NCBI GenBank assembly: GCA_963748215.1
Contig: CAVVHS010000006.1
Location: 608,001 to 672,000, forward strand
Length of the DNA: 64,000 nt
Reading direction: 5' to 3'
From: an uncultured Gammaproteobacteria bacterium
Lineage (GTDB): Bacteria > Pseudomonadota > Gammaproteobacteria > UBA9214
The notes under the pieces: model-generated
The model's input: the letters and a program-made list of their open reading frames with translations, nothing else
Database searches by the model: none
Told to the model about the DNA's origin: nothing
Translations under genes and position numbers: made by a program
Shown: positions 8,838 to 62,709 of the stretch, piece after piece
Layout of the letters: the number at the start of each line of letters is the position of its first letter
Numbering within the stretch: position 1 is the stretch's first letter

Positions 8838-9101
8838 GTAGCCCGCCTTTTGCGCCAGCATCCGGGATGCTGGCGCTGGACAGGTGCGGCTGGGCGCTGC
8901 TCTGGAACGAAAGTGGTAGTTGTAGCTACCACTTGAGTGAAGAGCAAGTCCAGGCGTGACTGGACCAGTCAGAGCCCGGATAGGCTGCGGTCCGACGAAA
9001 AACTACCCTTCGGAAATTATCCTGAACATTGACAGGTACACGTTTGTTGTACAGCAGTGTATACGCGGGTCCGCGGCCGGCTGGTGCAAAAGGCGGGCTA
9101 G
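8838..9101. mobile_element. Diverged long-form copy (264 bp) of the CTAG-bounded MITE-like family
   Basis: Inverted ends GTAGCCCGCCTTTTGCGCCAG ... CTGGTGCAAAAGGCGGGCTAG; internal 8862-8981 aligns with segments of the 52777-53279 copy. Confidence 0.8.
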
Positions 9102-9201
9102 GCTTCAACTGGCGGACCTTTTCCGGTAACGTATCGGCTCTGCTCGCGGGCGCAACCGGCCCGTGCTTATCCGGACTTCAATTACATATCAGGGAACTGC
9201 C

Positions 9202-9996
9202 ATGGGATTCTTGAGCGGGAAACGTGCACTCATCGTCGGGCTGGCCAGCAACCGGTCGATCGCCTGGGGCATTGCACGGGCCATGCTGCGAGAAGGCGCC
9301 GAACTGGCCTTCAGTTATCCAAACGACAAGATGCGCGAACGGGTCGCCAAGATGGCCACGGAGTGCGGCACTGATATCGTGCTGCCCTGCGATGTCAGCA
9401 GTGATGCGCAGATCGAGGCCCTGTTCGGCGACCTGGGCAAGCGCTGGGACGGTCTGGACATCATCGTGCACTCGGTTGCCTTTGCCCCGGCCGACCAGCT
9501 GGCCGGCGATTTTCTCGACTGCATCTCCCGCGAAGGCTTCGCGATCGCCCACGACATCAGCTCCTATAGCTTCGCGGCGCTGGCCAAGGCCGGCTACCCG
9601 CTGATGAAGGGACGCGGTGGTTCCCTGCTGACCCTCAGCTACCTGGGCGCGGTGCAGACCATCCCGAACTACAACGTCATGGGCCTGGCCAAGGCCAGCC
9701 TGGAAGCCAATGTACGCTACCTGGCACAGAGTCTAGGTCCGAAGGGTATTCGCGTGAACGGCATTTCCGCCGGCCCGATCCGGACCCTGGCCGCCTCGGG
9801 CATCAGCAACTTCCGCAAGCTGCTGGACAACTTCGCCCACACCGCGCCGCTGCGCCGCAACGTCACCATCGATGACGTCGGCAATACCGCCGCGTTCCTG
9901 TGTTCCGATCTCGCTGCCGGCATTACCGGTGAAATCACCTACGTGGACGGCGGCTACAACATCGTCGGCATGGCACCGCTCAGCCAGGACGGCTGA
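9202..9996 (+). CDS. fabI: Enoyl-ACP reductase FabI
   Basis: [39 protein letters not shown]. Confidence 0.97.
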
Positions 9997-11263
9997 GACG
10001 CGGCGCCGACAGGATGCCCGGCTCGCCCTCGAGACGACCGATCAGCACCGCCCCGCAGGAATCACTGAATACGTTCACGCCGGTCCGGCACATGTCGAGA
10101 ATGCGGTCCACGGCCAGGATCAGGCCGACCGCCTCGACCGGCAGACCGATCGCCGTGAGAATGATGGTGATGGCGACCAGGCTGGCTGCCGGAATACCCG
10201 CCACACCGATGGATGTCAGCAGGGCCACCAGCACGACCGTTAACTGGGTGGCGAAGCCAAGCTCTATCCCGTAGGCCTGCGCGATGAACATCGCGGCCAC
10301 GCACTCGTACAGCGCGGTACCGTCCATGTTCACCGTTGCGCCCAGCGGGAGTACGAAACTGCTGGTGCGATTAGACACCCCGGCGCGTTTCTCGACGCAA
10401 TCCATTGTGATCGGCAGGGTCGCCGACGACGAGGCCGTGGAAAATGCCGTCAGCAGGGCCGGCGACATGGCCTGGAATTGCCGCAGGGGATTGACGCGCG
10501 CGACCAGGCGCAGCAGCAGGGGCAGTGTGACCAGGAGGTGCACGGACAGCGCCGCCAGCACGGTGAAAAAGAAGGCCATTAGCGGCGCGAAGGCGGCAAA
10601 CCCGGTGGTGGCCACGACCTTCGCGACCAGCGCGAACACGCCGACCGGTGCGAACAGCATGACCCAGTCGGTGATCTTCATCATCACCGAAAACATGCCG
10701 CGCCAGAAATCACGCAGCACCTGCGCCTGCACGCCATCGATACGGGTCATGAAAAAACCGAACAGCAGGCTGAAGAAGATCATTCCCAGCATCTGTCCCT
10801 CGGCGGCGGCCGCGACGATGTTGGCAGGAATCATGCGCAGGAATATCCCGACCACGTCGCCGGCGCCCTGCCCCTGTACCCGTGCGGCGATGTCCGCCGT
10901 ATCGGTTTCCGACAGCGGGATGATGTCACTCGCAGGCATGCCGTCGACGATCCCCGGTGCCACCAGGTTCACCGCGGTCAGCCCCACCAGCACCGCCAGC
11001 AGGCTGGTGGTCAGGTAATACAGCAGGGTTTTCAGGCCGAGGCGCCGCATGGCGTTGCCACTGCCCATGCCGGCCACGCCGGTAATGATCGAGGAAATGA
11101 TCAGCGGGACGATCAGCATCTTCAGGGCATTCATGAACATGCTGCCGAGGAAGGAATAGATATCGATGAACAGGACGCCGAAGATACTGCCGTCCGCGCC
11201 ACCCAGCCGACCGGCGATCACGGCCAGCGCCAGTGCTATCAGGATTTGCCAGTGCAGCTTCAG
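9980..11263 (-). CDS. Dicarboxylate/amino acid:cation symporter (DAACS, GltP/DctA family)
   Basis: [12 protein letters not shown] and [13 protein letters not shown] motifs; N-terminus extends in frame to (L)[13 protein letters not shown], with a probable CTG start at 11263. Confidence 0.9.
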
Positions 11264-11302
11264 CGTCTCTGTCCTCTAGCTGCCGGTGCTGCGGACAAGG
11301 TG

Positions 11303-11430
11303 CTAGCCCGCATTTCTCACCGGGTTGCAGTTAACCGACATAATGAGCCGAAACCATGAAGCTAATACCCATTCGTCAACCAACAGTGTGTCAGTGGGCG
11401 GTGCCTAACCCGGTGAGAAATGCGTGCTAG
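11303..11430. mobile_element. Short-form MITE-like element (128 bp); right CTAG contains the ppiD stop codon
   Basis: TIRs CTAGCCCGCATTTCTCACCGGG / CCCGGTGAGAAATGCGTGCTAG. Confidence 0.9.
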
Positions 11431-13340
11431 AGTTCGTCTTCCCGCGGGATCCGGATGCTGGCCTGTGACCTGAGCTGGCCCAGCACCAGTTGCAGAGCGT
11501 TGGCACCGTCGATTTCGTTCAGTGATCGCCAGGCCTGCTTGCGTGCGTCCTCGGGCAGGGCATCGTAATCACCCGGCTGCACCTCTTCCAGTGCGATCAG
11601 CGCATAATCGCCGCTGGAAAGCAGCACGCCGGTGTATACGGGCTTGTCCGCTTCCGGCAGCGGCATGGAAAACGCCCGGCCGACCAGTTCCCGCGACGGC
11701 TGCTCCGCATTACGCGGCAGCAGGATGCTGTTTTCAAGCTTCAGCGATTCGGCCGCCGCGACAGAGTCCATGGTGGCCTTGCCGCTGTCGAGTTCCGCGA
11801 GAACGGCGGCGCCCTTCGCCTCGAGCAAGGCCCGGGTCTTGTCCTGGCGCGCGGCCTCGGCCACGCGCTCCCTGACGCTGTCCAGTGTTTGCTGCTCGGC
11901 CGGCTGGTGTTCCAGTATGCGCAGCACGACGACATGGTCATCACCGATCTCTATCGCCTGACTGTTGTTGCCCTGCACGAGCACGTCGTCAGTGAAAATG
12001 GCTTCCCGTACGTCCGGGTTGGCGGCAATGCCGGTGGCGCTGTCACGCTCGATCCAGTCCGATTCGACGATCTTGAGTCCCAGGGCATCGGCCGGGCCCT
12101 GCAGTGAGTCCGGCTGTTCGAACGCCAGGTTGGACAGGGTCTCCGACTGGTCGTAGAACAGTTCACCGCGCTCCTTGTCGAGTAGCTGCGTCACCAGCTG
12201 CTCGCGCACGTCGGCCAGCGGTGTCGCTACCTCTGGCTTGATTTCCAGCAACTCGATGATGTGGAACCCGAACTCGGTCTGCACCGGTGGACTGCGCTCA
12301 CCGACGGCCATGGCGTAAACCGCATTCTCGAATTCCGGAGTCATGAGCCCCCTGGCGAATAATCCCAGGTCGCCGCCTGCGGGAGCCGAGGCAGGATCAT
12401 CCGATTCCGTCCTGGCGAGGGTCTCGAACGACTCACCGGCCTCAAGACGCTGTTCGATGGCCTCCGCCTTCGCCCGGGCTGCCGCTATGTCGTCAGCGGT
12501 CTGGCCCTCGACCTGCACCAGTATATGCCGGGCACGACGCTGTTCCGGTGTGACAAATTTCTCGCGCTGCTCTTCATACAGCGCCTTGATCTGGTCCTCG
12601 TCGACATCGGTAGCGAGGCTGATCCCGTCAGCATTGAGCTCCACGTACGCGATCCTGACGCGTTCCTTGCGCATGAACGCGCCGGGATGCGCCGCGTAGT
12701 AGTCCTCGATCTCCTGGTCCGATACGGCGGCCTTGTCGGCGACCACTGCGGCCGGGATCAGCAGGTAGTTGAAACGGCGCCGTTGCCCCTCCAGGCGGAA
12801 GGCTTCACGCAGGGCCTGCTCGGTACCCGCGGCGGTCAGGGCGATGCCGGACTTCAGCTGGTTGGCCATGATTTCCTGCTTCAGCCGCCATTCGAATTCG
12901 TGCGGGGCAAGCCCCTGGTAGCGCAATACCTGGACATAGCGCTCTTTCGAGAACACGCCATCCTTCTGGAAACTTTCGACAGTCTTGATGCGTTCCGCGA
13001 TCTGGCGCTCGCTGGCCGAAAATCCCTCGGCCTCGGCGGCCTGCAGGACGAGTTCGTCGTTGACGAGCTTGTTGATGGTGCTTTCCCTGATCAGCTTTTC
13101 GTCGAATCTGGCCGGGTCGAAGGCAGCACCCAGGGCCCGCTGCAGGTTCGACATCATCTGGTTATAGGCACTCTGATACTGCCGGGGTGTAATCTCGACA
13201 TCATTGATCTTCGCCACGGCGCTGGTGGCGTTCGACTGCAGGTAGGAGTTCAGACCGAAGAAGGCGAAGGCAACGAACAGGATGCCGAGCACGATCCAGC
13301 CCACGATCCCCATCACCTTTTCACGTATGGCAAGTAGCAT
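11427..13340 (-). CDS. ppiD: Periplasmic folding chaperone PpiD (SurA-N + parvulin)
   Basis: N-terminal membrane anchor, ARHIL, SDDPASAPAGGDLG, FGFHII; canonical position after hupB; start set at MLLAIREK. Confidence 0.93.
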   Translation of the reverse strand: MLLAIREKVMGIVGWIVLGILFVAFAFFGLNSYLQSNATSAVAKINDVEITPRQYQSAYNQMMSNLQRALGAAFDPARFDEKLIRESTINKLVNDELVLQAAEAEGFSASERQIAERIKTVESFQKDGVFSKERYVQVLRYQGLAPHEFEWRLKQEIMANQLKSGIALTAAGTEQALREAFRLEGQRRRFNYLLIPAAVVADKAAVSDQEIEDYYAAHPGAFMRKERVRIAYVELNADGISLATDVDEDQIKALYEEQREKFVTPEQRRARHILVQVEGQTADDIAAARAKAEAIEQRLEAGESFETLARTESDDPASAPAGGDLGLFARGLMTPEFENAVYAMAVGERSPPVQTEFGFHIIELLEIKPEVATPLADVREQLVTQLLDKERGELFYDQSETLSNLAFEQPDSLQGPADALGLKIVESDWIERDSATGIAANPDVREAIFTDDVLVQGNNSQAIEIGDDHVVVLRILEHQPAEQQTLDSVRERVAEAARQDKTRALLEAKGAAVLAELDSGKATMDSVAAAESLKLENSILLPRNAEQPSRELVGRAFSMPLPEADKPVYTGVLLSSGDYALIALEEVQPGDYDALPEDARKQAWRSLNEIDGANALQLVLGQLRSQASIRIPREDEL

Positions 13341-13386
13341 AATCCGTCTCGGATATTCCGGGTGACCTGATAGTTCAGCGTCTGAC

Positions 13387-13418
13387 AAAGAAAGGGCACC
13401 CGTACGGGCGCCCTTCTC
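13387..13418 (-). terminator. Intrinsic terminator after tRNA-Val/tRNA-Asp
   Basis: AAGGGCACCCG..CGGGCGCCCTT hairpin followed by a T-rich run on the minus strand. Confidence 0.7.
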
Positions 13419-13426
13419 TGGTCATA

Positions 13427-13503
13427 TGGCGGAGTGGACGGGACTCGAACCCGCGACCCCCGGCGTGACAGGCCGGTATTCTAACCAGCTGAACTACCAC
13501 TCC
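13427..13503 (-). tRNA. tRNA-Asp(GTC)
   Basis: Cloverleaf GGAGTGGTAGTTCAG...CCTGTCACG...GTTCGAGTCCCGTCCACTCCGCCA. Confidence 0.97.
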
Positions 13504-13510
13504 TGATCCT

Positions 13511-13586
13511 TGGTGGGTGCTGAGGGGATCGAACCCCCGACATTCGCCTTGTAAGGGCGACGCTCTCCCAGCTGAGCTAAGCACCC
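13511..13586 (-). tRNA. tRNA-Val(TAC)
   Basis: GGGTGCTTAGCTCAG...CCTTACAAG...GTTCGATCCCCTCAGCACCCACCA. Confidence 0.97.
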
Positions 13587-13596
13587 CGAAGGCGCG

Positions 13597-13870
13597 CTAG
13601 TTTACGGCATCCTTGAGGGCTTTGCCAGCCTTGAAGCCCGGCGACTTTCGAGGCCTTGATCTGGATGGTTTCGCCGGTCTGCGGATTGCGTCCGGTGCGT
13701 GCGGCACGTTCCCGGACCGAGAAGGTGCCAAATCCGGAAATGATGACCTGGTCGCCGCCAGCGAGTGCGCTGACAATGCTGTCCAAAACGGCATCGGTGG
13801 CGCTGGCCGCATCGGTGCGGGACAGGCCGGAGGAACTGGCAACAGCGTCGATCAATTCTGATTTTTTCAT
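13597..13870 (-). CDS. hupB: DNA-binding protein HU, +1 frameshift near 13642
   Basis: MKKSELIDAV...GFGTFSVRERAARTGRNPQTG; C-terminal PGFKAGKALKDAVN lies in the adjacent frame. Confidence 0.92.
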
Positions 13871-13989
13871 ATGGGGTTCCCTGGTGTAGTTGTGGTTTAT
13901 CTTGTTTGATACTGCTGGAAAACGTCCTGCCCGGCCGGCAAATGCCGCCACTGGTGGCGAACATTATCAGAACTCGGTTACCGGGTGCA

Positions 13990-14029
13990 AAATACCGCCG
14001 CTACCCACCAGGTGGTGAATAGCGGCGGT
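13990..14029 (-). terminator. Probable terminator after lon
   Basis: ACCGCCGCTA...TAGCGGCGGT inverted repeat followed by ATTTT on the minus strand. Confidence 0.6.
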
Positions 14030-14048
14030 CACTGCTGGCGCATGGCTG

Positions 14049-16457
14049 TCAGTGCGCAGTCAGATTTTTTACCTTTGCCTTCGGCTTCGTGGTCTTGCGG
14101 GGTGCGCTCTTGGTCTCGGTATTCGGCAGCGGAGTCGGCTGGTGCGTGAGCGCGACCTCCAGAACCTCGTCGATCCAGCGCACCGGCCTGATATCCAGCT
14201 TGTCCTTGACGTTGCTGGGGATCTCGGCAAGATCCTTCCGGTTTTCCTCAGGGATCAGCACGATGGAGATCCCGCCACGATGTGCCGCCAGCAGTTTCTC
14301 CTTCAGTCCACCGATCGGCAGCACCTCGCCGCGCAGGGTGATCTCACCCGTCATGGCCACATCGGCCCGCACCGGAATATTGGTCAGCGCCGACACCAGC
14401 GCGGTGCACATGCCGACACCGGCACTCGGCCCGTCCTTCGGGGTGGCCCCTTCCGGCACGTGAATGTGGATATCGTATTTCTGATAAAACTCGGGATCGA
14501 TACCCAGCGATGCCGCGCGACTGCGCACAACGGTCATGGCCGCCTGGATGGACTCCTGCATGACGTCACCCAGCTGCCCGGTGTGGATCATCTTGCCCTT
14601 GCCCGCGACAATAGCCGACTCGATGGTCAGCAGTTCACCACCGACTTCTGTCCAGGCCAGACCGGTGACCTGGCCGACCTGGTCATTCTCTTCCGCGCGT
14701 CCGTAACGGAAGCGCTTGACGCCGAGGTATTTCTCCAGGTTCTTCGGCGTGACGGCAACCTTCTTGCCCTTCTCGTGCAGCACCAGTTCCTTGACCACCT
14801 TGCGGCAGATCTTGGATATTTCGCGCTCGAGATTGCGCACACCCGCCTCGCGTGTGTAGTAGCGCACAATGTCGCGTATCGCATGCTCACTGATGGAGAT
14901 CTCGTTCTCCTTCAGGCCGCTGTTTTCGACCTGTTTCTTGAGCAGGTAGCGCATGGCGATGTTGATCTTCTCGTCCTCGGTATAGCCGGGGATACGAATG
15001 ACTTCCATGCGATCGAGCAACGGTGCGGGAATGTTCAGGGTATTCGCCGTGGCGACGAACATCACGTCGGACAGGTCGAAGTCGACCTCCAGGTAATGAT
15101 CCGCAAATGTGTTGTTCTGCTCGGGATCCAGCACCTCCAGCAGCGCGGACGAGGGATCGCCACGGAAATCCATGGACATCTTGTCCATTTCATCCAGCAG
15201 GAACAGCGGATTCCGCACACCCATCTTGGACAGGTTCTGGATGATCTTGCCGGGCAGTGAACCGATATAGGTACGGCGGTGGCCACGGATCTCGGCCTCG
15301 TCACGCACGCCGCCCAGCGACATGCGCGTGAATTTGCGGTCGGTGGCGCGTGCGATGGAACGTCCCAGCGAGGTCTTGCCGACGCCGGGCGGACCCACCA
15401 GGCACAGGATCGGGCCCTTCAGTTTCTTGACCCGTTGTTGCACGGCCAGGTACTCGAGGATGCGTTCCTTGACCTTTTCCAGGCCGTAGTGATCCTCTTC
15501 CAGTATGCTTTCCGCTGCGGCAAGGTCGTGGCGGATCTTGGAGCGTTTTTTCCAGGGCACACTGACCAGCCAGTCGATATAGTTTCTGACCACCGTCGCC
15601 TCGGCGGACATCGGTGACATCATCTTCAGCTTGTTGAGTTCGGTGGTGGCCTTTTCCTTGGCTTCCTTGCTCATGCCGGCCTTGTCGATTTTCTGCTCCA
15701 GTTCCTCGATCTCGTTCGGCGCATCCTCCATGTCACCGAGTTCTTTCTGAATAGCCTTCATCTGCTCGTTCAGATAGTACTCGCGCTGACTCTTCTCCAT
15801 CTGCTGCTTGACGCGGCCACGGATGCGCTTCTCGATCTGCAGGATGTCGATCTCGCCCTCGATCAGCACCATCAGGCGCTCGAGGCGGGCGCGGTCGTTG
15901 TCGATCTCGAGGATCTTCTGTTTCTCCTCGAGCTTGAGCGACATGTGTGCGGCGATGGTATCCGCCAGGCGTCCTGGTTCCTCGATACCGGACAGCGACG
16001 TGAGTATTTCCGGCGGCACTTTCTTGTTCAGCTTCACGTACTGGTCGAACATGGCCAGCAGCGAACGTGTGAGAATTTCCAGTTCCTTTTCGTCCTCTTC
16101 GGCTTCCGGCTGCATTAACTCGACATGCGCCGTGAAGAACGCATCGGTATTGTCATAGCCGGTAATGCGCACGCGCTCGGCGCCCTCGACCAGCACCTTC
16201 ACGGTGCCGTCTGGCAGCTTGAGCAATTGCAGGATAGTGGAAAGCGTTCCGATTTCGTGGATGTCGGCTATCTCGGGATCGTCGATTTCGGCATTCTTCT
16301 GTGCGACCAGCAGGATCTTCTTGTCTTCCTGCATCGCGGTATCCAGCGCATTGATCGATTTCTCGCGCCCGACAAACAGCGGGATGACCATGTGCGGGTA
16401 TACAACCACATCCCTGAGGGGCAAGACGGGTATCGCTTTCGAAGCCTGGTCTGTCAT
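14049..16457 (-). CDS. lon: ATP-dependent protease La
   Basis: [29 protein letters not shown] catalytic Ser, GGLKEK. Confidence 0.98.
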
Positions 16458-16590
16458 AAATGTGTCCGTCCGTTAGTGAATTCGGTGAAATGAGCCAACG
16501 CCGTGCTGGCTGCCTGTCCGTGCATCGCCGGATCAGCAGCCTTCCCCACCAGTACCCGGGTAACGCGCTCCAGCTGCATATGACCCTACT

Positions 16591-16616
16591 ATGGGGTCGA
16601 ACAGCGCAACATCAAC
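16591..16616 (-). promoter_or_regulatory. Sigma-32-type heat-shock promoter for lon
   Basis: Minus strand GTTGAT-N14-CCCCAT, close to the CTTGAA-N13/14-CCCCAT consensus. Confidence 0.65.
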
Positions 16617-16714
16617 CGTTTTTTTGACAGGTAGTTACTATACAGCAAGGAATGTGCCAGCTTTTCCGGAATCCCGGCAATCGGGTAACTCTCTATTTCC
16701 GGTAAAGAAGTTAT

Positions 16715-17986
<1,272 letters not shown>

Positions 17987-18165
17987 GTCTCGCCCTCACG
18001 GTTATCAACATTTATGCTGCACCTTGTTTTTAACACTAAATGTTATTATCGTTCAACTCCTTCGACAGCGTTTTCTTTTATTTTATCTGACAGATAAATA
18101 AGGGTTTTTGCCGACCCGGCCCGCTGGTATCGCCGGACAGTGCATGGACGGCGTGTAGAAATCTG

Positions 18166-18810
18166 CTATTCCTTGTCCTTGCCAGCCACCATGGGCCGGT
18201 GTTCGAGGATCTGGTCGATCAGGCCGTATTCCTTGGCGGCAGTGGCACCCATGAAGTTATCACGATCGGTATCTTTCTGGATCTGCTCGAGTGACTGCCC
18301 CGTGTGCCTGGCAAGAATCTGGTTCAGGCGCTCCCTGATATGCAGTATTTCCCGGGCATGGATGTCGATGTCCGTGGCCTGTCCCTGGAAGCCGCCCAGT
18401 GGCTGGTGGATCATGATGCGCGAGTGCGGCAGGCAGACACGCTTGCCCTGCGCACCGCCAGCCAGCAACAGCGCACCCATGCTGGCAGCCTGCCCGATGC
18501 ACATGGTGCTGACATCCGCCTTGATGAATTGCATGGTGTCGTAGATGGCGAGTCCGGCCGTGACCGAGCCACCCGGCGAGTTGATGTACAGGTGGATGTC
18601 CTTGTCGGGATTCTCCGACTCGAGAAACAGCAACTGCGCGACGATTACGTTCGCCATGTAGTCTTCGACGGGGCCGACCATGAACACCACGCGCTCTTTC
18701 AGCAGGCGCGAGTAGATGTCATAGGAGCGTTCGCCGCGTGCGGTCTGCTCGACGACGATGGGAACCAGGTTCAGCGCCTGTATGTCATTAGCATTATTCA
18801 TGTTTTTCAT
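18166..18810 (-). CDS. clpP: Clp protease proteolytic subunit
   Basis: [22 protein letters not shown]. Confidence 0.98.
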
Positions 18811-18822
18811 ATCGGTCCGGGG

Positions 18823-20115
18823 TTATTTTCCTTGAGTCTGACGGGCTTCTTCGACAAGATCACTGAACGACATGCGTTTATCCTCTACCGTTACCCCGCC
18901 GTGCTCGATGATCCACTCCACAACCTGCTCCTCGATCACGGTGGACTGGACACCGTAGAGCATTTCCTGGTTGCCATAGTACCACTGGATGACTTCTTCC
19001 GGCTTTTCGTAGGACGCCGCAATGGTCTCTACCATTTGCCGCACCCGGTCCGGATCGAGCTGAATCTGGTTCTGCTTGGCGACCTCGGAAACGATCACGC
19101 CGAGCTTGACGCGCTTGCCGGCGAGCGCGTCCAGTTCCGCCAGCGGGCGCTGCCGGTTGCCCTTTTGTGATTTGAGTGTCTCGACCTCTTCGCTGATCAG
19201 TTTCTTTGGTGCATCGACAGGGTTGTGTTCAAGCAGGCTGTCGAACACCTGCTGCTTCAGCTTCGAGGAAATCAGGCCCTTGAGTTCACGCTGCATATTC
19301 CGCTGCACTTCGTTCCTGAGGCCCTCCATGCCGCCTTCTGCGACGCCGAAGGCCCGGGCAAACTCGTCATCGAGTTCGGGCAGCTCCATCTCCGCCACCG
19401 ATTTCAGCTTGACCGAAAAACTCGCGTCCTTGCCCGCCACCCCGGCCGACGGGTAATCAGCCGGGAACGTAATGGCGAGCGTCTTCTCGTCACCGGCCGA
19501 GAGGCCTTCCAGCTGTTCTTCGAAACCCTTGATCATGCTACTCGAGCCCAGCACGACCGGCATGTCATCGGCCTTGTTGCCGGGAAACGGCTGGCCGTCG
19601 ATCGACCCTTCGAAATCGATCACCACCTGGTCGCCGGACCGTGATGCACGATCAACGGTGTTCCAGCTCACCCGTTGTTTTCTCAGGGTATCCAGCATGC
19701 CGTTGATGTCTTCGTCGGTGATTTCAACCACCGGCCTGGACACCGTGAACCCGTAATTCAGCAGTCCCTGCAATTCGGGGAAAACCTCGAACGTGGCGAC
19801 ATATTCAAACGGCGCGCCGGGAGGCATGTCCCTGGTTTCGATACTCGGCGCACCGGCTGGACGGATATTGTTCTGGCTGAACGCCTCCTGCAGGGTGGCA
19901 TTCACCACTTTGTCGACGATCTCCATGCGCACCTGCTTGCCGTATTTCTGCGCGACTACCTTCATCGGCACCTTGCCGGGCCGGAAACCATCCAGACGCA
20001 CGGTCTGCGACATCGATTGCAGGCGTGACTGCACCTCCTGATCGATGCGTTCCGCTGGTACCTGCACCGTCATGCGTCGCGCAAGCCCCCCGGTATTTTC
20101 TACAGAAACTTCCAT
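18823..20115 (-). CDS. tig: Trigger factor
   Basis: GFRPGKVP ribosome-binding motif, FKBP domain, upstream of clpP. Confidence 0.97.
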   Translation of the reverse strand: MEVSVENTGGLARRMTVQVPAERIDQEVQSRLQSMSQTVRLDGFRPGKVPMKVVAQKYGKQVRMEIVDKVVNATLQEAFSQNNIRPAGAPSIETRDMPPGAPFEYVATFEVFPELQGLLNYGFTVSRPVVEITDEDINGMLDTLRKQRVSWNTVDRASRSGDQVVIDFEGSIDGQPFPGNKADDMPVVLGSSSMIKGFEEQLEGLSAGDEKTLAITFPADYPSAGVAGKDASFSVKLKSVAEMELPELDDEFARAFGVAEGGMEGLRNEVQRNMQRELKGLISSKLKQQVFDSLLEHNPVDAPKKLISEEVETLKSQKGNRQRPLAELDALAGKRVKLGVIVSEVAKQNQIQLDPDRVRQMVETIAASYEKPEEVIQWYYGNQEMLYGVQSTVIEEQVVEWIIEHGGVTVEDKRMSFSDLVEEARQTQGK

Positions 20116-20227: not shown

Positions 20228-20312
<85 letters not shown>

Positions 20313-20451
20313 CTTGTTCCCGCCCCCTGGGTCTCACGGCATTTTACCTAAATTTCACTGGAATGATAATGGGTTATAACTCTTTATTCGGCACTGCGGC
20401 TGTCCCGTCAGCGATATGCGCTGCGGTGCAGCGGCGGCAAGCGCCGCCTAC

Positions 20452-20474
20452 AAAAAACCCGTGCTGGGCACGGG
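20452..20474 (-). terminator. Intrinsic terminator after tRNA-Lys
   Basis: CCCGTGC-3nt-GCACGGG followed by TTTTTT on the minus strand. Confidence 0.75.
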
Positions 20475-20480
20475 CATGTC

Positions 20481-20556
20481 TGGTGGGCCGTGTAGGAATC
20501 GAACCTACAACCAATGGATTAAGAGTCCACTGCTCTACCAATTGAGCTAACGGCCC
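20481..20556 (-). tRNA. tRNA-Lys(CTT)
   Basis: GGGCCGTTAGCTCAATTGG...GACTCTTAATC...CACGGCCCACCA. Confidence 0.96.
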
Positions 20557-20624
20557 AAAGAGGCGGTATTGGACCACAGCGTCAGAAGTGGATCAAGCGA
20601 TGGCGGCGGTCTGTCAGGGTTGAA

Positions 20625-20701
20625 TGGGGTGGACGATGGGACTCGAACCCACGACGACTGGAATCACAATCCAGGGCTCTACCAACTGAGCTACGCCCAC
20701 C
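20625..20701 (-). tRNA. tRNA-His(GTG), including encoded G-1
   Basis: GGTGGGCGTAGCTCAG...GATTGTGATTC...CCACCCCA. Confidence 0.96.
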
Positions 20702-20741
20702 ATTGACATTCAAATCTGCTGGCACCCGCACCGTTTCGAAC

Positions 20742-20818
20742 TGGCGCGCCCGGCAGGACTCGAACCTGCAACCCTCGGCTTAGAAGGCCGATGCTCTATC
20801 CGGTTGAGCTACGGGCGC
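20742..20818 (-). tRNA. tRNA-Arg(TCT)
   Basis: GCGCCCGTAGCTCAACCGG...GCCTTCTAAGC...GGGCGCGCCA. Confidence 0.96.
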
Positions 20819-20860
20819 AGTTCAGCAGTCTTGCCGTGATTGCCCGCTCCTCGTACTGTT

Positions 20861-20937
20861 TGGTCGGGGTAGAGAGATTCGAACTCCCGACATCCTGCTC
20901 CCAAAGCAGGCGCGCTACCAGGCTGCGCTATACCCCG
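20861..20937 (-). tRNA. tRNA-Pro(TGG)
   Basis: CGGGGTATAGCGCAGCCTGG...CTTTGGGAG...ACCCCGACCA. Confidence 0.96.
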
Positions 20938-24252: not shown

Positions 24253-24990
24253 ATGCCCTGCACCCTGTTCATTTCGGACCTGCACCTGGATCCGGAACGG
24301 CCGGCGATCACCGCCCTGTTTCTCGACTTCCTCGCGGCGCGTGCGGGTCACGCCGATGCGCTGTACATCCTGGGCGACCTGTTCGAGGCATGGATCGGCG
24401 ATGACGATGATTCGGAGCTGAACCGGGGCGTGTGCCACGAACTGGCACGCTGCGCTGCGGCGGGCACCGCCGTTTACGTCATGCACGGCAACCGCGACTT
24501 CCTGCTCGGCGAGCGCTTTGCGAAGCAGTCGCACTGCACGCTGCTCGATGATCCCGCCTGCATCGACCTGTACGGCACGCCCACCCTGCTCATGCACGGT
24601 GATCTGCTGTGCACGGATGATACCGAATACCAGGCCTTTCGGGTCCAGGCGCGCAGCGCGGCATGGCAGGAAGAACTGCTGGCGAAAACTCTGCAGGAAC
24701 GCCGTGCCATCGCCAGCGAAATGCGCCGGGTCAGCCGCGAGAAGACCGGCGGCAAGCCTGAATCCATCATGGATGTCAACGCGACAGCGGTCATCGAGCG
24801 CATGACAAGGCACGCCACGATCCGCTTGATTCACGGTCACACGCACCGCCCGGACATACACGAACTGGTCATCGACGGCAGGCCCGCACAGCGCATCGTG
24901 CTGGGCGACTGGTACGAACAGGGCAGCGTGCTCGAATGTACGCCGAACGGATGCGAGCTGGAGTCACTCGAACCGCGGCGGACTTCCTAG
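24253..24990 (+). CDS. lpxH: UDP-2,3-diacylglucosamine diphosphatase
   Basis: FISDLHL, LGDLFE, HGNRDF, HGD, HGHTH. Confidence 0.96.
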   Translation: MPCTLFISDLHLDPERPAITALFLDFLAARAGHADALYILGDLFEAWIGDDDDSELNRGVCHELARCAAAGTAVYVMHGNRDFLLGERFAKQSHCTLLDDPACIDLYGTPTLLMHGDLLCTDDTEYQAFRVQARSAAWQEELLAKTLQERRAIASEMRRVSREKTGGKPESIMDVNATAVIERMTRHATIRLIHGHTHRPDIHELVIDGRPAQRIVLGDWYEQGSVLECTPNGCELESLEPRRTS

Positions 24991-25114
24991 CCCGCATTTC
25001 TCACCGGGCAGCTGTAGACAGACATAATGAATTGAAATCACGAAAGTGATACCCATTCAGCAAACAACAGTGTGTCATCAGGCGGTGCCTATCCCGGTGA
25101 GAAATGCGGGCTAG
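24987..25114. mobile_element. Short-form MITE-like element (128 bp); both terminal CTAGs contain the stop codons of the convergent flanking genes
   Basis: Perfect 22-bp TIR CTAGCCCGCATTTCTCACCGGG / CCCGGTGAGAAATGCGGGCTAG. Confidence 0.93.
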
Positions 25115-25845
25115 TCGGTGGCGAGTCGAATGCGCTGATAGTCTTCCGGCAGCGCAAACAGCCCCGGCTCGACCTGCGCACCGGCGCGGAAGTTCACCAG
25201 CGAACGCTGGTAACCGGCACCATCCCACTCCTGGATCGGCAGTCCGTGGCGCAAATACCGGTCCGGCGCATACACGTAGCGGGACAGAAAACACGGCGTC
25301 TGCATCTCGGCCGGGACAGTGTGCAGACTGCCCAGCTGGCGATTGCCTAGCACCCTGGCGTAGTCGGCAAGACCGGCCACGGCATCGTCCAGCAGACCGG
25401 GCACGGCAGCAACCCGGAAGCAGGTCGTGTCGTTGGCCGTGAAGCGGACCAGCAACGGCTGCTTCCCGGCGACAGCCGGCGTCGCGTCATCTTCCTCGAT
25501 CACCTCGTCGAAGTGTAGCGTGTCAGGTACTCGCTGCTCGCGTGTCTGGAATTCGATCACCAGGATATTCCGCTCCTCGTGGTTGACGCTGTACAAGGTG
25601 CGTGTGCCACGATCCAGCAGCACGAAGTCACCGCCGTCGTCATCGTCGTCGAGACGCACGAACCCCGCGCTCACGATAATCCGGACCGGGTAGATATCGG
25701 TGCCTGCCTCCTTCTCCTGGTACCAGAGCATGCTGGCCGTGTGTGGCGCTGCATTTTCCTGCGCGGCTACCGGGCCCGCCACGGCAATCAGCATGCCGGC
25801 AAGACAACCCGCCGCCGCGTTCAGGATGTGTCGTCTGATATTCAC
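25111..25845 (-). CDS. Exported hypothetical protein
   Basis: Signal-peptide-like N-terminus; C-terminal LFALPEDY motif as seen in DUF4412-like exported proteins; overlaps the upstream stop. Confidence 0.7.
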   Translation of the reverse strand: MNIRRHILNAAAGCLAGMLIAVAGPVAAQENAAPHTASMLWYQEKEAGTDIYPVRIIVSAGFVRLDDDDDGGDFVLLDRGTRTLYSVNHEERNILVIEFQTREQRVPDTLHFDEVIEEDDATPAVAGKQPLLVRFTANDTTCFRVAAVPGLLDDAVAGLADYARVLGNRQLGSLHTVPAEMQTPCFLSRYVYAPDRYLRHGLPIQEWDGAGYQRSLVNFRAGAQVEPGLFALPEDYQRIRLATD

Positions 25846-32115: not shown

Positions 32116-32137
32116 CTGGCCCGCATTTCTCACCGGG
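32116..32137. repeat. Solo terminal repeat of the MITE family; supplies the folC TGA stop
   Basis: CTGGCCCGCATTTCTCACCGGG, 21/22 identical to the TIR; no partner end nearby. Confidence 0.8.
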
Positions 32138-33413
32138 CTGTCGGCGGAAAATACGGGCTGGCCAGCGCCTCTCCCACGGTGATAAAGGAACCGCTTACCA
32201 CGATGCGGTCCGCCGGCGCGGCCAGCTCCAGCGCCTGCGCCAGGGCCGCCGCGACAGTGTCGAACAGCCGGATTTCCCGGTGCGTGCCCGGTATGGCAAT
32301 ACGCTGCGCCAGTGCCTCGGCCGGGAGGCCACGCGCCACGGCCAGACTGGCCAGGCACCAGCGATCGATACGGCCGTCCAGTGCGGCGGCAAAGGCCGCG
32401 GCGTCCTTGTCCGCGAGCATGCCCAGCACCAGCCAGGTTCGGCCGGCCACGGGGCTGGCATGCAGCTGTCTGGCCAGCATGCCGGCACTGTCCGGGTTGT
32501 GCGCCACGTCGAGGATGACCTGCGGCGTACCGGGAAATACCTGGAAACGGCCGGCCAGCCGGACCGTGCGCAACGCCTGCTCAAGCGCGTCGCGGCTGAC
32601 CGGTAAATGCGCATCGAGCAATTCAACGACTGCCAGCACCCCGGCTGCATTATTCAGCTGACATTCTCCAGACAGTGCGGGCAACGGCAGCGCGTCATGC
32701 CCTCCGTGCCAGCCGCGCCAGCTCCAGTACTGGCCGGCGCGGGTGCGGGTGAATTGCCCGCCCAGCGCATACCAGTGCGCACCGATGCCGGCAGCGTGCT
32801 GCCGCAGGCTGGTCGGCGGTGACGGGTCGGAACAGACTGCCGGGCGGCCAGCGCGAAAGATCCCCGCCTTCTCCCGGCCGATGGTTTCACGATCATTGCC
32901 CAGCCAGGCGCTGTGGTCGATGCCGATTGACGTGACCAGCGCGACATCGGCGTCGATGATATTCACGGCATCCAGGCGTCCGCCCAGGCCTACTTCCAGC
33001 AGCGCGATATCGAGTCCGGCACCGTCGAACAGCAGCAGGGCGGCGAGCGTGCCGAATTCGAAATAGGTCAGCGACACCCCGTCACGTGCCTGGTCGACAC
33101 GCTCGAATGCCGCACACAGCGCGGCATCATCGACCTCGCGGCCGTCGATGCGGATGCGTTCGTTGTAACGCAGCAGGTGCGGCGAGGTGTAGCTGCCGGT
33201 GCGATACCCGGCATTACGGTAGATTGCCTCCAGCAGGGCGACGCTGGATCCCTTGCCGTTGGTGCCCGCGACGGTGACGATCCGGTAGCCGGGTTGCAGC
33301 ACCTCCAGGCGCCGCGCCACGGCGACCACCCGTTCCAGGCCGAGGTCGATCTTGCGCGGATGCAGGCTGTCCTGCCAGGTCAGCCAGTCGGCAAGGGTTT
33401 GGAAACGTGGCAT
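32130..33413 (-). CDS. folC: Bifunctional dihydrofolate/folylpolyglutamate synthase
   Basis: VAGTNGKGS, YTSPHL, EVGLGGRLDAVN, DVAHNP. Confidence 0.97.
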   Translation of the reverse strand: MPRFQTLADWLTWQDSLHPRKIDLGLERVVAVARRLEVLQPGYRIVTVAGTNGKGSSVALLEAIYRNAGYRTGSYTSPHLLRYNERIRIDGREVDDAALCAAFERVDQARDGVSLTYFEFGTLAALLLFDGAGLDIALLEVGLGGRLDAVNIIDADVALVTSIGIDHSAWLGNDRETIGREKAGIFRAGRPAVCSDPSPPTSLRQHAAGIGAHWYALGGQFTRTRAGQYWSWRGWHGGHDALPLPALSGECQLNNAAGVLAVVELLDAHLPVSRDALEQALRTVRLAGRFQVFPGTPQVILDVAHNPDSAGMLARQLHASPVAGRTWLVLGMLADKDAAAFAAALDGRIDRWCLASLAVARGLPAEALAQRIAIPGTHREIRLFDTVAAALAQALELAAPADRIVVSGSFITVGEALASPYFPPTAR

Positions 33414-52004: not shown

Positions 52005-52455
52005 CCGGGAACAACTGGATCGCCTGCGTGCCGGCCTGCTGGATGATTCGCCACAGGACAAGGCCCTGCTGGAAGCACATCTCGCAGCGTGTGACACCTG
52101 CCAGGCCCAATTCGGCAGCTGGGAACAGCTCGGGCCCGGCTCACTGGGCCCGGACCTCGAACCGGCCGCGCTCGGACGTGACCTGCGTGCGGCCAGGATG
52201 CTCGCCCTGGACAGCGGCACGCCGCGCCAGCGCCATGCCTTCGCACCCTACGCGACGGCCGCCCTGCTGCTGATCGCCGTCACGGTCGGGATCTGGACAG
52301 GCCAGCACTGGCTGCAGCCACAACAGCCACAGCTAACCGCCCAGGCGCCGCATGAAGTGCCCGATATCTACGAGGACCTGGACTTCTATCTCTGGCTGGC
52401 GGGCCAGCATGACTCCGAATCCGAGACACACAGTGACAACCCGAACAACACCTGA
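51982..52455 (+). CDS. Zinc-binding (ZAS) transmembrane anti-sigma factor
   Basis: HLAACDTC (HxxxCxxC), single TM, EDLDFYLWL C-terminal motif; overlaps the sigma gene. Confidence 0.85.
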   Translation: MHSQQHPDREQLDRLRAGLLDDSPQDKALLEAHLAACDTCQAQFGSWEQLGPGSLGPDLEPAALGRDLRAARMLALDSGTPRQRHAFAPYATAALLLIAVTVGIWTGQHWLQPQQPQLTAQAPHEVPDIYEDLDFYLWLAGQHDSESETHSDNPNNT

Positions 52456-52456
52456 C

Positions 52457-52780
52457 ATGAAAGCACGCAACATCATCAGCGCCGCAATCCTCGCCGTGTA
52501 TCTCGCCGGCGGGATGCAACCCGTACACGCCGACAACGACATTCCCTGGAACAGCCTGAGTCGGAGCGAACAATCCCTGCTCATGAAACACCAGGGTGGA
52601 TGGACGAGCCTGAGCGGCAAGGAACAGCGCCGGCTGGTAAGTGGTGCAAGAAAGTACCTGGAGTTGCCGCCCGACCAGCGCAAGGCGGTCGAGGACAAGC
52701 GCAACCAGTACAAACGCATGTCCCCTGAAGAGCGGGAGCAACTGCGCGACAGATACAGCAAGCAGAAGAAATACCGCTAG
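52457..52780 (+). CDS. Exported DUF3106-like protein
   Basis: Signal peptide; repeated W/Y-x-x-L/M-S/P-x-x-E/Q helical units; TAG stop lies in the MITE CTAG. Confidence 0.8.
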   Translation: MKARNIISAAILAVYLAGGMQPVHADNDIPWNSLSRSEQSLLMKHQGGWTSLSGKEQRRLVSGARKYLELPPDQRKAVEDKRNQYKRMSPEEREQLRDRYSKQKKYR

Positions 52781-53279
52781 CCCGCATTTCTCACCGGGAT
52801 CCCGGAAGCTGGCGCACGACTGAAAGGACGCAGGAGGTAGAGCAACGCAGGGAGCAGTTGCCGAGGGCTCGTGTGACCGGGCGCCGCTCTGGAATGAAGG
52901 ACCCGCTCGAGGCGCAGAGCAGGGGCCCCGGCGTAGCCGGGGATGCGACCGCCGGTGGGCGGAAGATCGCTTCGAACACCACCGCGGGTCTTCGCTCCAC
53001 CGGGGGTCAGATCCCCACCGCTGCGCGGCGGGGCCCCTCTTCCGCCCCTCGAAGCGATGCAGCCGTAGCAACCACTTGAATGAAGAGGCCGCTCCCGGCT
53101 TCCTGCCTCCCGCGGCACTTGCACTTCCCTGTACATCGCAAGTACGGGTGCACGAGAACCAGTCAGGGCCGGGATAGGCGCCGCCCGATGACACACTGTT
53201 TGTTACTGAATGGGCATCACTTTCATGATGTAAATTCAGTATGTCCGTCAACAGCCGCCCGGTGAGAAATGCGGGCTAG
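52777..53279. mobile_element. Long-form MITE-like element (503 bp) with three nested insertions
   Basis: Perfect TIRs; core at 53169-53279 is the reverse complement of the short form; CCGGGAT direct repeats at 52794-52800 and 53169-53175. Confidence 0.9.
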
Positions 53280-53384
53280 GCCCGGCAGCGCCCGCACCGG
53301 GGACCGGGCCGGCGATACCGCGGGCCGACCATCTCTGGTATGCTTCGCTGCCATTTTCACGGGCACGCAGGCGACGCCATCATC

Positions 53385-54550: not shown

Positions 54551-54575
54551 ACCGCTTACCCGGCTGCCTGCCCGA

Positions 54576-55514: not shown

Positions 55515-55533
55515 GATGGTCGTCCTCGCGCCG

Positions 55534-57387: not shown

Positions 57388-57410
57388 AGTCTTCAGTTTC
57401 CTGTGCGGCC

Positions 57411-57737: not shown

Positions 57738-57816
57738 GTCTGCTCCTCAAAATCATGCGGTTCTGTTCGTCCGGAGGCGGCACCTGCTCATGCCGGCGAC
57801 CGGTCAAACCAGCGCA

Positions 57817-59973
<2,157 letters not shown>

Positions 59974-60073
59974 GGCGCGGCATGTTAGCACAGGATTTAG
60001 TGCCCGCCGCTTGCCCGTATGCCCGGATTCCCCGATACTAGCGGGCCTTGCCGGCAGCATGCCGGCACCCGAT

Positions 60074-60160
60074 GCCGAGGTGGTGAAACTGGTAGACGCA
60101 CTGGACTCAAAATCCAGCGGAGGCAACTCCATGCGGGTTCGATTCCCGCCCTCGGCACCA
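60074..60160 (+). tRNA. tRNA-Leu(CAA)
   Basis: GCCGAGGTGGTGAAACTGGTAGACGC...CTCAAAA..., long variable arm, CCA end. Confidence 0.97.
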
Positions 60161-60183
60161 CATCACCGGCCCGAAGCGGATAT

Positions 60184-60672
60184 TCAGCGCGACACGGGCA
60201 CCAGCCACGCAAACACGAGCGTCGCCAGCAACAGCGTCAGCAGCAGTGTTCGCGTGCGTCCGGATTTTGTGCTGTCATGCGGTTCGAGCCCCTGAAAACC
60301 GAACATGTAACTGTCGATCATGCGTAAGTTATCTTCGCGCCTGCGGTCAGTGCCGGCACGCCGTTCACTGGCAGCCGTATTGCACCGGGGACAGGTATCG
60401 CGCCGCCTGTCGGTGCTGCGTTCGTCGACCTGCATGCGTGCCTCGATGTAGCGCTGATAATCCTCCCAGCTGGACAGGTTCAGCATCTCGTGCGGCAGCA
60501 GCCCGGTCAGCACCCTGGCATCCGACCAGGACGAGCGGTCCCTGCTCAGCTCGTCCTCGAGACGTATGCGGCCGAGCAGGATGTGGCGGGTGACTTCTGC
60601 AGCCGGGAAAGGCCCGCGCACCACGCCTTCACGGCGTGTGTACCATTTGTCAGTGTCTCCCCGCCGTTTCAT
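60184..60672 (-). CDS. Hypothetical protein: GYF_2-like N-terminus, (D/E)RR-rich middle, C-terminal TM
   Basis: WYTRR...GPF...W pattern; DERSTDRR and ERRAGTDRR; hydrophobic C-terminus; 20 nt downstream of fliA. Confidence 0.7.
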   Translation of the reverse strand: MKRRGDTDKWYTRREGVVRGPFPAAEVTRHILLGRIRLEDELSRDRSSWSDARVLTGLLPHEMLNLSSWEDYQRYIEARMQVDERSTDRRRDTCPRCNTAASERRAGTDRRREDNLRMIDSYMFGFQGLEPHDSTKSGRTRTLLLTLLLATLVFAWLVPVSR

Positions 60673-60692
60673 GTGTGCGCCGCGTGCGGCCC

Positions 60693-61421
60693 TCAGTCAC
60701 TCAGCCATTCCCCCATGCGCGCGCGCAGGCGAATCAGCGCCTGGCCATGTATCTGGCAGACTCGCGATTCGCTGACGCCCAGGATTTCGCCGATCTCGCG
60801 CAGGTTCAGCTCCTCGTCGTAATACAGCGCCATCACCAGCCGCTCGCGTTCCGGCAAGCCCTTGATCTCGTCGGCAAGGCCCTGCTTGAAATCGCTCTTC
60901 TGCAGGTTTTCCAGGGGTTGATCGATATGCCGTCCGGACTGCGGCATCCCCTCTTCGCCCAGCATGCCGGGATCCTCGAAACTGAAAATACGGCAACCGG
61001 TCGAGTCCTGCAGGATCTTGTGATATTCCACGAGGCTGATGTCCATCACCTCGGCGACCTCGACATCACGCGCGTCCCGGCCCTTCTCGTTCTCTATCTT
61101 GCGCACTGCCTCGGCAACCTCCCGGGCCTTGCGATGTACCGAGCGGGGCGTCCAGTCGGTACGCCTGATCTCATCAAGCATGGCGCCGCGAATACGGATG
61201 CCGGCATAGGTTTCGAAGCTCGCACCCTGTTCGGGGTCGAATTTTCTGGAGGCCTCGATCAGCCCGATCATGCCGGCCTGGATCAGGTCGTCTGCCTGGA
61301 CACTGGCGGGCAACCGGCTCATCAAATGATAGGCGATCCGCTTGACCAGTGGTTCGTGCAATACAACCAGTTCGTTGCTTGATGCAAATTCAGCTGCCGC
61401 CTTAGCTGCGTTACCTTTCAT
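60693..61421 (-). CDS. fliA: Sigma-28 (FliA/WhiG family) RNA polymerase sigma factor
   Basis: LVKRIAYHL, DDLIQAGMIGL, RIRGAMLDE, DWTPRS, ESRVCQIH. Confidence 0.95.
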   Translation of the reverse strand: MKGNAAKAAAEFASSNELVVLHEPLVKRIAYHLMSRLPASVQADDLIQAGMIGLIEASRKFDPEQGASFETYAGIRIRGAMLDEIRRTDWTPRSVHRKAREVAEAVRKIENEKGRDARDVEVAEVMDISLVEYHKILQDSTGCRIFSFEDPGMLGEEGMPQSGRHIDQPLENLQKSDFKQGLADEIKGLPERERLVMALYYDEELNLREIGEILGVSESRVCQIHGQALIRLRARMGEWLSD

Positions 61422-62305
61422 GACCTCACCTCCATATCCCTGTTTTCGTTCTGAATGAGACGTTCAACAAAAAACTCGAGATGGCCGCCCGCATACTGCT
61501 GGCGCGGCCATTTCATGATCTGCCTGGCAAGATTCTTCAGTGCCATGGCGGAGCGACTGCGGGGAAACGCACTCAGTACGGTCTGGCGCTGTGCGATCGC
61601 ACGCTGCAGGCATTCATCGCGCGGCACGTAGCCGCAACAGGACAGCACCATGTCGTGATTGTCGTTAAAATGCCCGAATAGCCATGCAAACAGCTCGCCA
61701 GCCTCGGTCGCGGATGCGACCATGTTCGGCAATACATGGAAACGTGCGATCCCGTGCGCCCTGTACAGCGTGTCGATCAGCGCCACCGCGTCCCTGATCG
61801 AGGCCGGTTCGTTGCAAATCACCACCACGATATCGGTCGCCGCGCGACAGAAACTGGTGACGATCTCGGAGATTCCGGTTGCCGTGTCTATAACGAGTGC
61901 ATCGATCGGTTCGTCGAGGTCGCTGAATGCGCGCATCAGGCCCGTGCATTCATTCATGCCGAGTTCGGCGAGTTGCTTTTCCCCGGATGCGGCGGGTATC
62001 AGCCGCAAGCCGCCCGGGCCATTCGTCAGGATATCCCCGAGCGACTTGTTGCCATTGAGCACGTCATGCAGGGTGAACTCGACTTCGAGACCGAGCAGCG
62101 CATCGATATTCGCCATGCCGAGATCGGCATCCAGCAACAGGGTCCGCTGTCCCTCGCTGCTCAGCGCCTGCGCGACATTGAGGGCAATGCTGGACTTGCC
62201 GATGCCGCCCTTGCCGCCGGTGAACGCGATAACCTGTACCGGCGGATGCATGGCAGGTTTGACGGGGTCACCGCTGCGGCCAAGTTTGATATCAGCGAAC
62301 TGCAT
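61418..62305 (-). CDS. fleN: MinD-like ATPase FleN/FlhG
   Basis: GGKGGIGKS deviant Walker A, LLDADLGMAN, GHLEFFVERL C-terminal helix; ATGA overlap with fliA. Confidence 0.88.
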   Translation of the reverse strand: MQFADIKLGRSGDPVKPAMHPPVQVIAFTGGKGGIGKSSIALNVAQALSSEGQRTLLLDADLGMANIDALLGLEVEFTLHDVLNGNKSLGDILTNGPGGLRLIPAASGEKQLAELGMNECTGLMRAFSDLDEPIDALVIDTATGISEIVTSFCRAATDIVVVICNEPASIRDAVALIDTLYRAHGIARFHVLPNMVASATEAGELFAWLFGHFNDNHDMVLSCCGYVPRDECLQRAIAQRQTVLSAFPRSRSAMALKNLARQIMKWPRQQYAGGHLEFFVERLIQNENRDMEVRS

Positions 62306-62582
62306 GGTGTTTCCCGCGGCGGGTCTGGATAGAAAAGGTCATTTGCATCTGCGCTACCTGTTGCTGATTCAGGGATGAGTTCTGCATGCAACAGTGATAG
62401 CAACTTGCGTACCAACATCTCCGACAGACGACAAATGCGTCCGCTGTCGATATAACTACATGTATTAGAATGGAATTCTTTCTATCAGTTTGCGGGGGTA
62501 TTTTTCGGAATTACGTCACATTTTTGACTTTTTAGCCGGGAATGACAGCAAAATGACTTATTGACGCCGGCGGTGGGGATGT

Positions 62583-62709
62583 CTCGCCCGCATTTCTCAC
62601 CGGGCGGCTGTTGACGGACATAATGAATGAAATCATGAGAGTGATGCACATTCAGCAACAAACAATGTGTCATCGGGCGATGCCTATCCCGGTGAGAAAT
62701 GCGGACTAG
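62583..62709. mobile_element. Short-form MITE-like element (127 bp)
   Basis: CTCGCCCGCATTTCTCACCGGG ... CCCGGTGAGAAATGCGGACTAG; core nearly collinear with the 24987 copy. Confidence 0.9.

Follow-up and report, generated by a model that had tools for sequence, protein, structure and literature searches.

CTAG-flanked miniature inverted repeats of a gammaproteobacterial genome share the ends of an IS1380-family subclade and enclose modular interiors

A stretch of 64,000 nucleotides from an uncultured Gammaproteobacteria bacterium of the lineage UBA9214 (GenBank assembly GCA_963748215.1, contig CAVVHS010000006.1, positions 608,001 to 672,000 of the forward strand; the whole stretch is called the window below) carries six copies of a small inverted-repeat element flanked by CTAG or by close variants of it. 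The copies share their ends with a subclade of IS1380-family insertion sequences (IS), and very probably they belong to a family of miniature inverted-repeat transposable elements (MITEs) that an IS1380-type transposase mobilises at CTAG. We infer that the copies of the window were themselves mobilised in trans. A full-length relative with the same ends encodes a transposase of this family, and the interiors of the small elements are put together from a few modules, one of which forms a covarying hairpin.

In the window, the end sequence CTAGCCCGCATTTCTCACCGGG is matched nine times with no more than one mismatch each, against 0.00 matches expected from 100 dinucleotide-preserving shuffles. Eight of these matches form pairs, at 11303/11430, 24987/25114, 52777/53279 and 62583/62709, giving copies of 128, 128, 503 and 127 bp, and the match at 32116 is unpaired. 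Among the four paired copies, the 22-nt ends (CTAG included) are identical at 20-22 of 22 positions, whereas the AT-richer 84-bp core is identical at only 60-74 of 84. An earlier reading made from the letters alone (the sequence-only reading) had described six copies in both orientations, with an almost invariant end and a far more substituted core. Matches to the end and reading of the sequence locate all six places, alignments bear out the two orientations, and the contrast between end and core stands. The claim of one shared end holds for the copies carrying CTAGCCCGCATTTCTCACCGGG, in which it is nearly invariant, but fails for the copy at 8838-9101, which carries the variant TAGCCCGCCTTTTGCRCCAGC; the 22-nt ends are thus present in five members, and the sixth has a variant pair of ends. 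The supposed solo end at 32116 belongs to a degenerate mini-element (32116-32165) whose second end has decayed. Profile hidden Markov models of three element types found no members in the window beyond these six.

The distribution of the end was followed in a species-representative genome collection, scanned once with its three variable positions left free. At least 117 loci (given L-numbers here) were returned. All the loci listed are metagenome-assembled genomes (MAGs), and their record titles name Gamma- and Alphaproteobacteria, Acidobacteriota, Planctomycetota, Verrucomicrobiota, Actinomycetota, Nitrospira, Spirochaetales and others. Several matches lie on megabase contigs or complete chromosomes, so that binning error cannot account for the whole of this spread. 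With relaxed matching, the window and the loci together hold 71 end pairs, 70 of which measure 55-503 bp and one 1748 bp; CTAG stands on both sides of 47 of the 71. When clustered, 59 of 79 elements fall in one related group. Another gammaproteobacterial MAG has two copies (L036 and L074) that agree at 127 of 128 positions and lie between unrelated flanks, and such near-identity at unrelated sites means that the family has moved recently somewhere. The word abundant, which the sequence-only reading had applied to the family, is justified for the window, with its six copies over 64 kb, as well as for certain other MAGs, and is limited to those.

The evidence for the partner comes from the single long pair. 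In L070, a MAG labelled unclassified bacterium, positions 225-1972 are a 1748-bp element with the same ends (18/18 terminal-repeat positions) and CTAG flanks. Its sole open reading frame (ORF; 298-1749, 483 aa) matches Pfam PF13701 (E 5.6e-161) and the NCBIfam model NF033539, 'IS1380 family transposase' (E 1e-121). A tblastn search with this protein gave matches in four places, all on the inner side of the end: L091, labelled Planctomycetales, has this gene too, L007 has decayed copies of it and L057 a fragment. In a plasmid collection, annotated IS1380-family transposases from Bradyrhizobium, Rhizobium and Pseudomonas share 55-59% identity with the protein, and the three of these plasmid elements that were examined all have CTAG-flanked, near-matching ends. 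Both arms of the element on P. putida pKF715A read CTAGCCCGCATTTCTCACAG, and the ends of the Bradyrhizobium and Rhizobium elements are close variants. The search for a transposase-bearing element with the same ends, which the earlier reading had proposed, has therefore led to an IS1380-family element. In the plasmid elements L118, L119 and L121, the leader shows, by eye, a stretch a short way after the left end that is complementary to the region of the transposase start (in L118 the pair is CATCGGGGC ... GCCCCGATG); such a stretch could sequester the transposase start codon in read-through transcripts.

The partner first suggested was of another kind, namely an IS630 or an IS5/IS701 element. 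IS630-type elements target CTAG, and the CTAG flanks would allow a duplication of TA within CTAG, the palindrome masking the difference. A partner of IS630/Tc1 type that duplicates TA, or one of IS5/IS701 type, is nonetheless very improbable. Between these ends or immediately inside them, the only transposases that came to light are of the IS1380 family, and three annotated IS1380-family elements carry these ends. Moreover, a Pfam search of 88 ORFs (at least 180 residues) in the 2.5 kb of sequence inward of each of 20 unpaired ends gave no IS630, IS5 or IS701 domain. This search otherwise returned one ISL3 transposase, one integrase (L005) and, for the rest, housekeeping genes. The ISL3-family gene (L016 991-2223; PF01610, E 2.1e-69), found immediately inside an unpaired end, is probably a nested insertion splitting an element. 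In outline, the sequence-only reading had the mechanism right, but it named the wrong partner family. Similar evidence bears on the REP/BIME repeats, which are clustered palindromic units of 20-40 nt tied to a RAYT (Y1) transposase. The elements of the window are likewise interspersed, intergenic and hairpin-forming, but they are units of 50-503 bp, with 22-nt terminal inverted repeats around an interior of 0-460 nt and with CTAG flanks, and an element with a DDE transposase has the same ends; that they are REP/BIME-like units under a RAYT transposase is hardly credible.

The assignment of these MITEs to an IS1380-type partner agrees with what is seen at the target site. The Rhizobium element on pRle248d lies between two CTAGs, and plasmid p2 of strain GLR17 holds a single CTAG at the orthologous position. 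A comparison with empty sites, expected to show a single CTAG, had been proposed in the earlier reading; it has succeeded for this full-length relative and not for any MITE copy. Where the flanks of the 71 end pairs are not CTAG, they are single-base variants such as CTGG/CTAG and never concordant direct repeats, and for this reason they look like later point mutations. A head-to-tail pair of elements in L092, one of 128 bp (177-304) and one of 167 bp (301-467), has one common CTAG, as would result if the second element had gone into a flank of the other. One gammaproteobacterial MAG contains a second hairpin-forming repeat, of ~170 bp, that repeatedly adjoins one side of the element and ends at the shared CTAG. 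It was seen in L048, L068, L085, L103 and L110, and also in L039, L044 and L051; it has weak matches to miRNA models in Rfam (L085, L110), outside the elements, and may be another CTAG-targeting element.

The insertions also stand in a particular relation to the ends of genes. With 21 occurrences in the window, CTAG is ~4.5-fold under-represented, dinucleotide shuffles leading one to expect 96 +/- 9, and the element flanks make up 8 of the 21. Four genes of the window, namely lpxH, a ppiD-like gene, a DUF3106 gene and ORF 25111-25845, stop in the TAG of a flank. Over the window and the loci, 108 element ends could be evaluated, and at 32 of them the flank TAG is the stop of an ORF of 150 codons or more; many of the 108 come from the same genomes and are thus not independent. 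For comparison, such an ORF ends at 188 of 3553 TAGs overall and at 46 of the 394 CTAGs elsewhere. These figures suggest a possible reason for the tolerance of the insertions, in that CTAG-poor genomes keep CTAG often as stops and a duplication preserves the stop on either side.

In the mechanism proposed for these MITEs, an IS1380-family DDE transposase, encoded elsewhere and possibly lost from the genome, would bind the ~18-bp CCCGCATTTCTCACCGGG at both ends and put the element into the palindrome CTAG, so that CTAG comes to stand on each side; by family precedent, a duplication of 4 bp would be most likely. The small elements have only their ends in common with the full-length element, and their interior consists of exchangeable modules, with none, A, B, or both in a given element. 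CTAG is strongly avoided in this genome and remains largely as C + TAG stops, so that insertions would tend to fall exactly at gene ends, and the duplicated TAG would keep the stop codons intact.

The modular anatomy can be read directly from the alignments of the copies. The ends only give a form of ~50-64 bp, the ends with the 84-bp module A give the 128-bp form, the ends with the structured hairpin called module B give a 167-bp form, and the ends with B and A give a 248-bp form. Longer forms of 290, 377, 476 and 503 bp contain inserts or an expanded hairpin apex. Module B is common to the window copies at 8838 and 52777. One site shows two forms: the element at 11303-11430 measures 128 bp in the window and 248 bp (L088 301-548) in the relative DATKZN01, which is 94% identical. 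The segment by which the two differ has a short direct repeat at its bounds (ATCCCGG in L088), a pattern that points to either a deletion or a conversion of one form into the other. A further type of 181-255 bp, found outside the window (L001, L015, L018, L035, L060, L065, L076 and others), combines these ends with another interior. Elements of this type fold into a single long hairpin with compensatory changes in 27 of 59 predicted pairs, and the MAGs that carry them are labelled Gammaproteobacteria, Actinomycetota, Acidobacteriota, Spirochaetales and Planctomycetota.

Several observations weigh against the reading of the window copies as MITEs moved by an IS1380-type transposase. A tblastn search with the IS1380 transposase gave no match in the window, which agrees with the earlier description of the copies as non-autonomous, CTAG-flanked miniature inverted repeats whose transposase is not encoded there, and means that no partner is at hand in this DNA. 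Among the loci listed, a full-length element with exact ends was seen neither in the organism of the window nor in its 94% relative, only in MAGs labelled as other lineages; the scan demanded an exact end, and partners with slightly different ends are missed by it. The interiors are also unlike those of the full-length elements, in that the MITE interior has no likeness by eye to their leader or tail and the module B model R1 has no match in L070 or in the full-length elements L118-L122, and hence it is shared ends that are demonstrated, not descent from the IS. An empty site was not obtained for a MITE copy, L071 and L090 matching the window only at the tRNA near 13.4 kb and diverging from there. 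Finally, as the sequence-only reading had pointed out, a palindromic CTAG hides whether one sees a target duplication or an extended inverted repeat, and since concordant variants are lacking as well, duplications of 2 and of 4 bp look the same. Elements of the IS1380 family have ends that start with CC and direct repeats of 4-5 bp; if CTAG is taken as the duplication, the elements described here start with CCCGC. This precedent, together with the start in CC, favours 4 bp, which is most likely the length of the duplication. A repeat of 5 bp is given for IS1247 in Table 2 of PMC3281130.

The age of the copies weighs in the same direction and raises the question of a fossil family, inserted before the split from the 94% relative, its partner now gone and its repeats inert or co-opted as hairpins. 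The cores of the window copies are 12-29% apart, and the copies at 11303 and 52777 occupy sites shared with DATKZN01 (L088 and L113; the site at 52777 is shared in part). One copy has decayed to a mini-element, two have mutated flanks, and the lack of a transposase in the window fits the same picture. The window copies look old, and current activity in this genome is doubtful. Against a fossil family stand the ends of four copies, still intact at 20-22 of 22 positions, a degree of preservation that one would not expect of copies long dead unless selection acts on the ends; the view, which is limited to 64 kb of the genome; and the near-identical copies in the other gammaproteobacterial MAG. 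We would give the fossil account, for this genome, somewhat less than an even chance.

A different alternative is that the repeats function mainly as structured RNA or single-stranded DNA, for instance hairpins of untranslated regions serving mRNA stability or termination, with the ends as the base of a stem. The folds are very stable, the end stem alone having z-scores of -5 to -9, and many copies abut stop codons. A further argument of this kind comes from module B. In a set of 17 sequences, 96% of its cells are paired and 21 of 31 pairs are changed on both sides, against 36-47% paired and 5-7 such pairs in slid controls. In 30 sequences, 27 of 31 pairs are changed on both sides against 7-14 in controls, the alignment of this larger set having been made to the model and therefore leaning towards the structure. 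The 87 G.U cells against 9 A.C cells indicate a structure that one strand favours; since the set contains many close relatives, the number of independent events is smaller than that of cells. The loop motifs ATG.TGGCGCAGG and AC.AGCCAG are conserved, and the carriers of module B are MAGs labelled Gammaproteobacteria, Alphaproteobacteria and Acidobacteriota. A small ORF starting from the conserved ATG of module B was considered and rejected on reading the alignment, as the stems covary while the implied residues vary.

For the family as a whole, a primary function as structured RNA or single-stranded DNA is nevertheless unlikely. The 128-bp form has a compensatory change in only 1 of 25 predicted pairs and no conserved structure beyond the end stem. 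Rfam at the gathering threshold returned only eight tRNAs from the whole window, and in E-value mode it returned nothing on the elements from 13 element-bearing loci and window positions 52700-53350. No promoter or terminator consensus was found in the three copies examined, and the orientation of the modules shows no bias relative to the genes reading in (11/44, 16/48 and 7/18). In addition, it has been shown that an element with a transposase carries these ends. The absence of an orientation bias and of an Rfam match holds for module B as well, which also lacks similarity to the full-length elements. We infer for it at most a possible role, and the proposal that it is a functional single-strand element, most likely RNA, rather than transposon filler is a speculative one that we hold to be rather doubtful.

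The individual members, all given on the plus strand, differ in form and in state of preservation. The copy at 8838..9101 is a 264-bp member of a sister subfamily (profile E 6.8e-49; RNA fold z -9.2). Its variant end TAGCCCGCCTTTTGCRCCAGC is found on both arms (2 matches against 0 expected), the arms differing in one base, and it has GTAG as its left and CTAG as its right flank. Within it, an end, module B, a diverged core and an end follow one another, and the module B hairpin of ~122 nt occupies 8860..8981 (covariance model R1, 108.5 bits, E 1.2e-20). Its neighbours are a divergent solute-binding-protein gene and an enoyl-ACP-reductase-like gene. The copy at 11303..11430, recognised by end matches and alignment, is a 128-bp member with two 22-nt ends around the 84-bp module A, and its right-hand CTAG provides the TAG stop of the ppiD-like gene (11427-13388, minus strand). 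The copy at 24987..25114, also of 128 bp, has perfect ends (end matches; DNA fold z -9.2). It lies between two convergent genes, lpxH (24253-24990, plus strand) and ORF 25111-25845 (minus strand), whose TAG stops are its two CTAG flanks, as expected if one former CTAG of overlapping stops had been doubled by the insertion.

The mini-element at 32116..32165, placed by its end match and by alignment, has kept its left end intact, while its right end, beyond a short spacer, has decayed. Both of its flanks are now CTGG, and it aligns with end-to-end mini-elements of 55-64 bp from other genomes. The last ~11 codons and the TGA of folC (32130-33413, minus strand; NF008101, residues 6-417 of 427 matched) lie inside it, the TGA within the end of the element, and the C-terminal tail of folC thus appears to be derived from the element. 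The copy at 52777..53279, supported by end matches and alignment, is the 503-bp member, with an end, module B, module A reversed (53152-53257) and an end; it corresponds to the 248-bp form with a greatly expanded hairpin apex and extra inserts in module B. The TAG stop of the DUF3106 gene (52352-52780, plus strand) comes from its left CTAG. The last copy, at 62583..62709, is a 127-bp member of the module A form (end matches, profile and fold), with CTCG on the left, CTAG on the right, and a ParA/MinD-like gene and a GGDEF-EAL gene as neighbours. Elsewhere in the window, a tig-clpP-clpX-lon cluster lies on the minus strand at 14049-20115, and tRNA arrays are found at 13427-13586 (Asp-Val) and 20228-20937 (Leu-Lys-His-Arg-Pro). 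The G+C content is lower (0.57-0.60) around 12-20 kb of the window, and the tRNA/clp region looks like ordinary housekeeping context.

Compared with known systems, the closest relatives are the IS1380 subclade with CTAG-flanked CCCGC(A/T)TTTCTCAC ends, represented by P. putida KF715 pKF715A, Bradyrhizobium sp. CB82 pCB82_1, R. leguminosarum pRle248d and L070. The likeness lies in the CTAG on both sides, in ends starting with CC and in the terminal repeat, which agrees fully with that of L070 and over its first ~14-18 nt with the plasmid copies. The members of this subclade measure 1.64-1.75 kb and carry a transposase; the window elements, in contrast, are of 50-503 bp, have no transposase and differ in their interiors. 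The founding element of the family, IS1380A of Acetobacter pasteurianus, belongs to the same transposase family (the L070 protein is 50% identical), but its locus shows no CTAG-flanked CCCGC end among the five longest inverted repeats listed, which places the window MITEs in another subclade.

ERIC, Correia/NEMIS, RUP and the cyanobacterial MITEs are small elements with terminal inverted repeats and strong hairpins, which lie between genes, depend on a transposase in trans and reach many copies. The present elements resemble these classical MITEs in all of these respects, and they differ, going by the descriptions of those families, in having their own ends and partner, a strict CTAG and a modular interior, and also in that their exact 22-nt end occurs in MAGs labelled many phyla. 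MITE definitions are given in PMC2779907. The Tn3-derived TIMEs (PMC4133298) likewise consist of little more than the ends of their partner and form mosaics, but their partner is Tn3 and their ends and target are others. In passages of PMC3281130, PMC2779907 and PMC3542288, IS1380 elements and MITEs are listed as separate groups. The literature searched, with ISfinder and supplements not covered, gave no description of an IS1380-derived MITE and nothing of the kind of bacterial miniature inverted repeats with a CTAG target duplication, and the end sequence, searched as text in the literature, met only unrelated primer matches. The 128-bp element had no match in the plasmid collection (blastn in 'distant' mode). 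The family is therefore an ordinary kind of mobile DNA of which, in this particular form, no earlier description was found.

The finding assigns an abundant, unnamed repeat to a likely partner, the IS1380 family, and corrects the guess that CTAG means IS630. For annotation, it offers the signature CTAG + CCCGCATTTCTCAC, which recurs in MAGs labelled many phyla, complete chromosomes included. Least ordinary in the family is the hairpin module, with its covariation and strand asymmetry, and it is a concrete candidate for study at the level of RNA. If its tentative interpretation were true, IS1380-type MITEs would be vehicles that carry a structured RNA domain across phyla to the ends of genes, through the targeting of CTAG and TAG stops.

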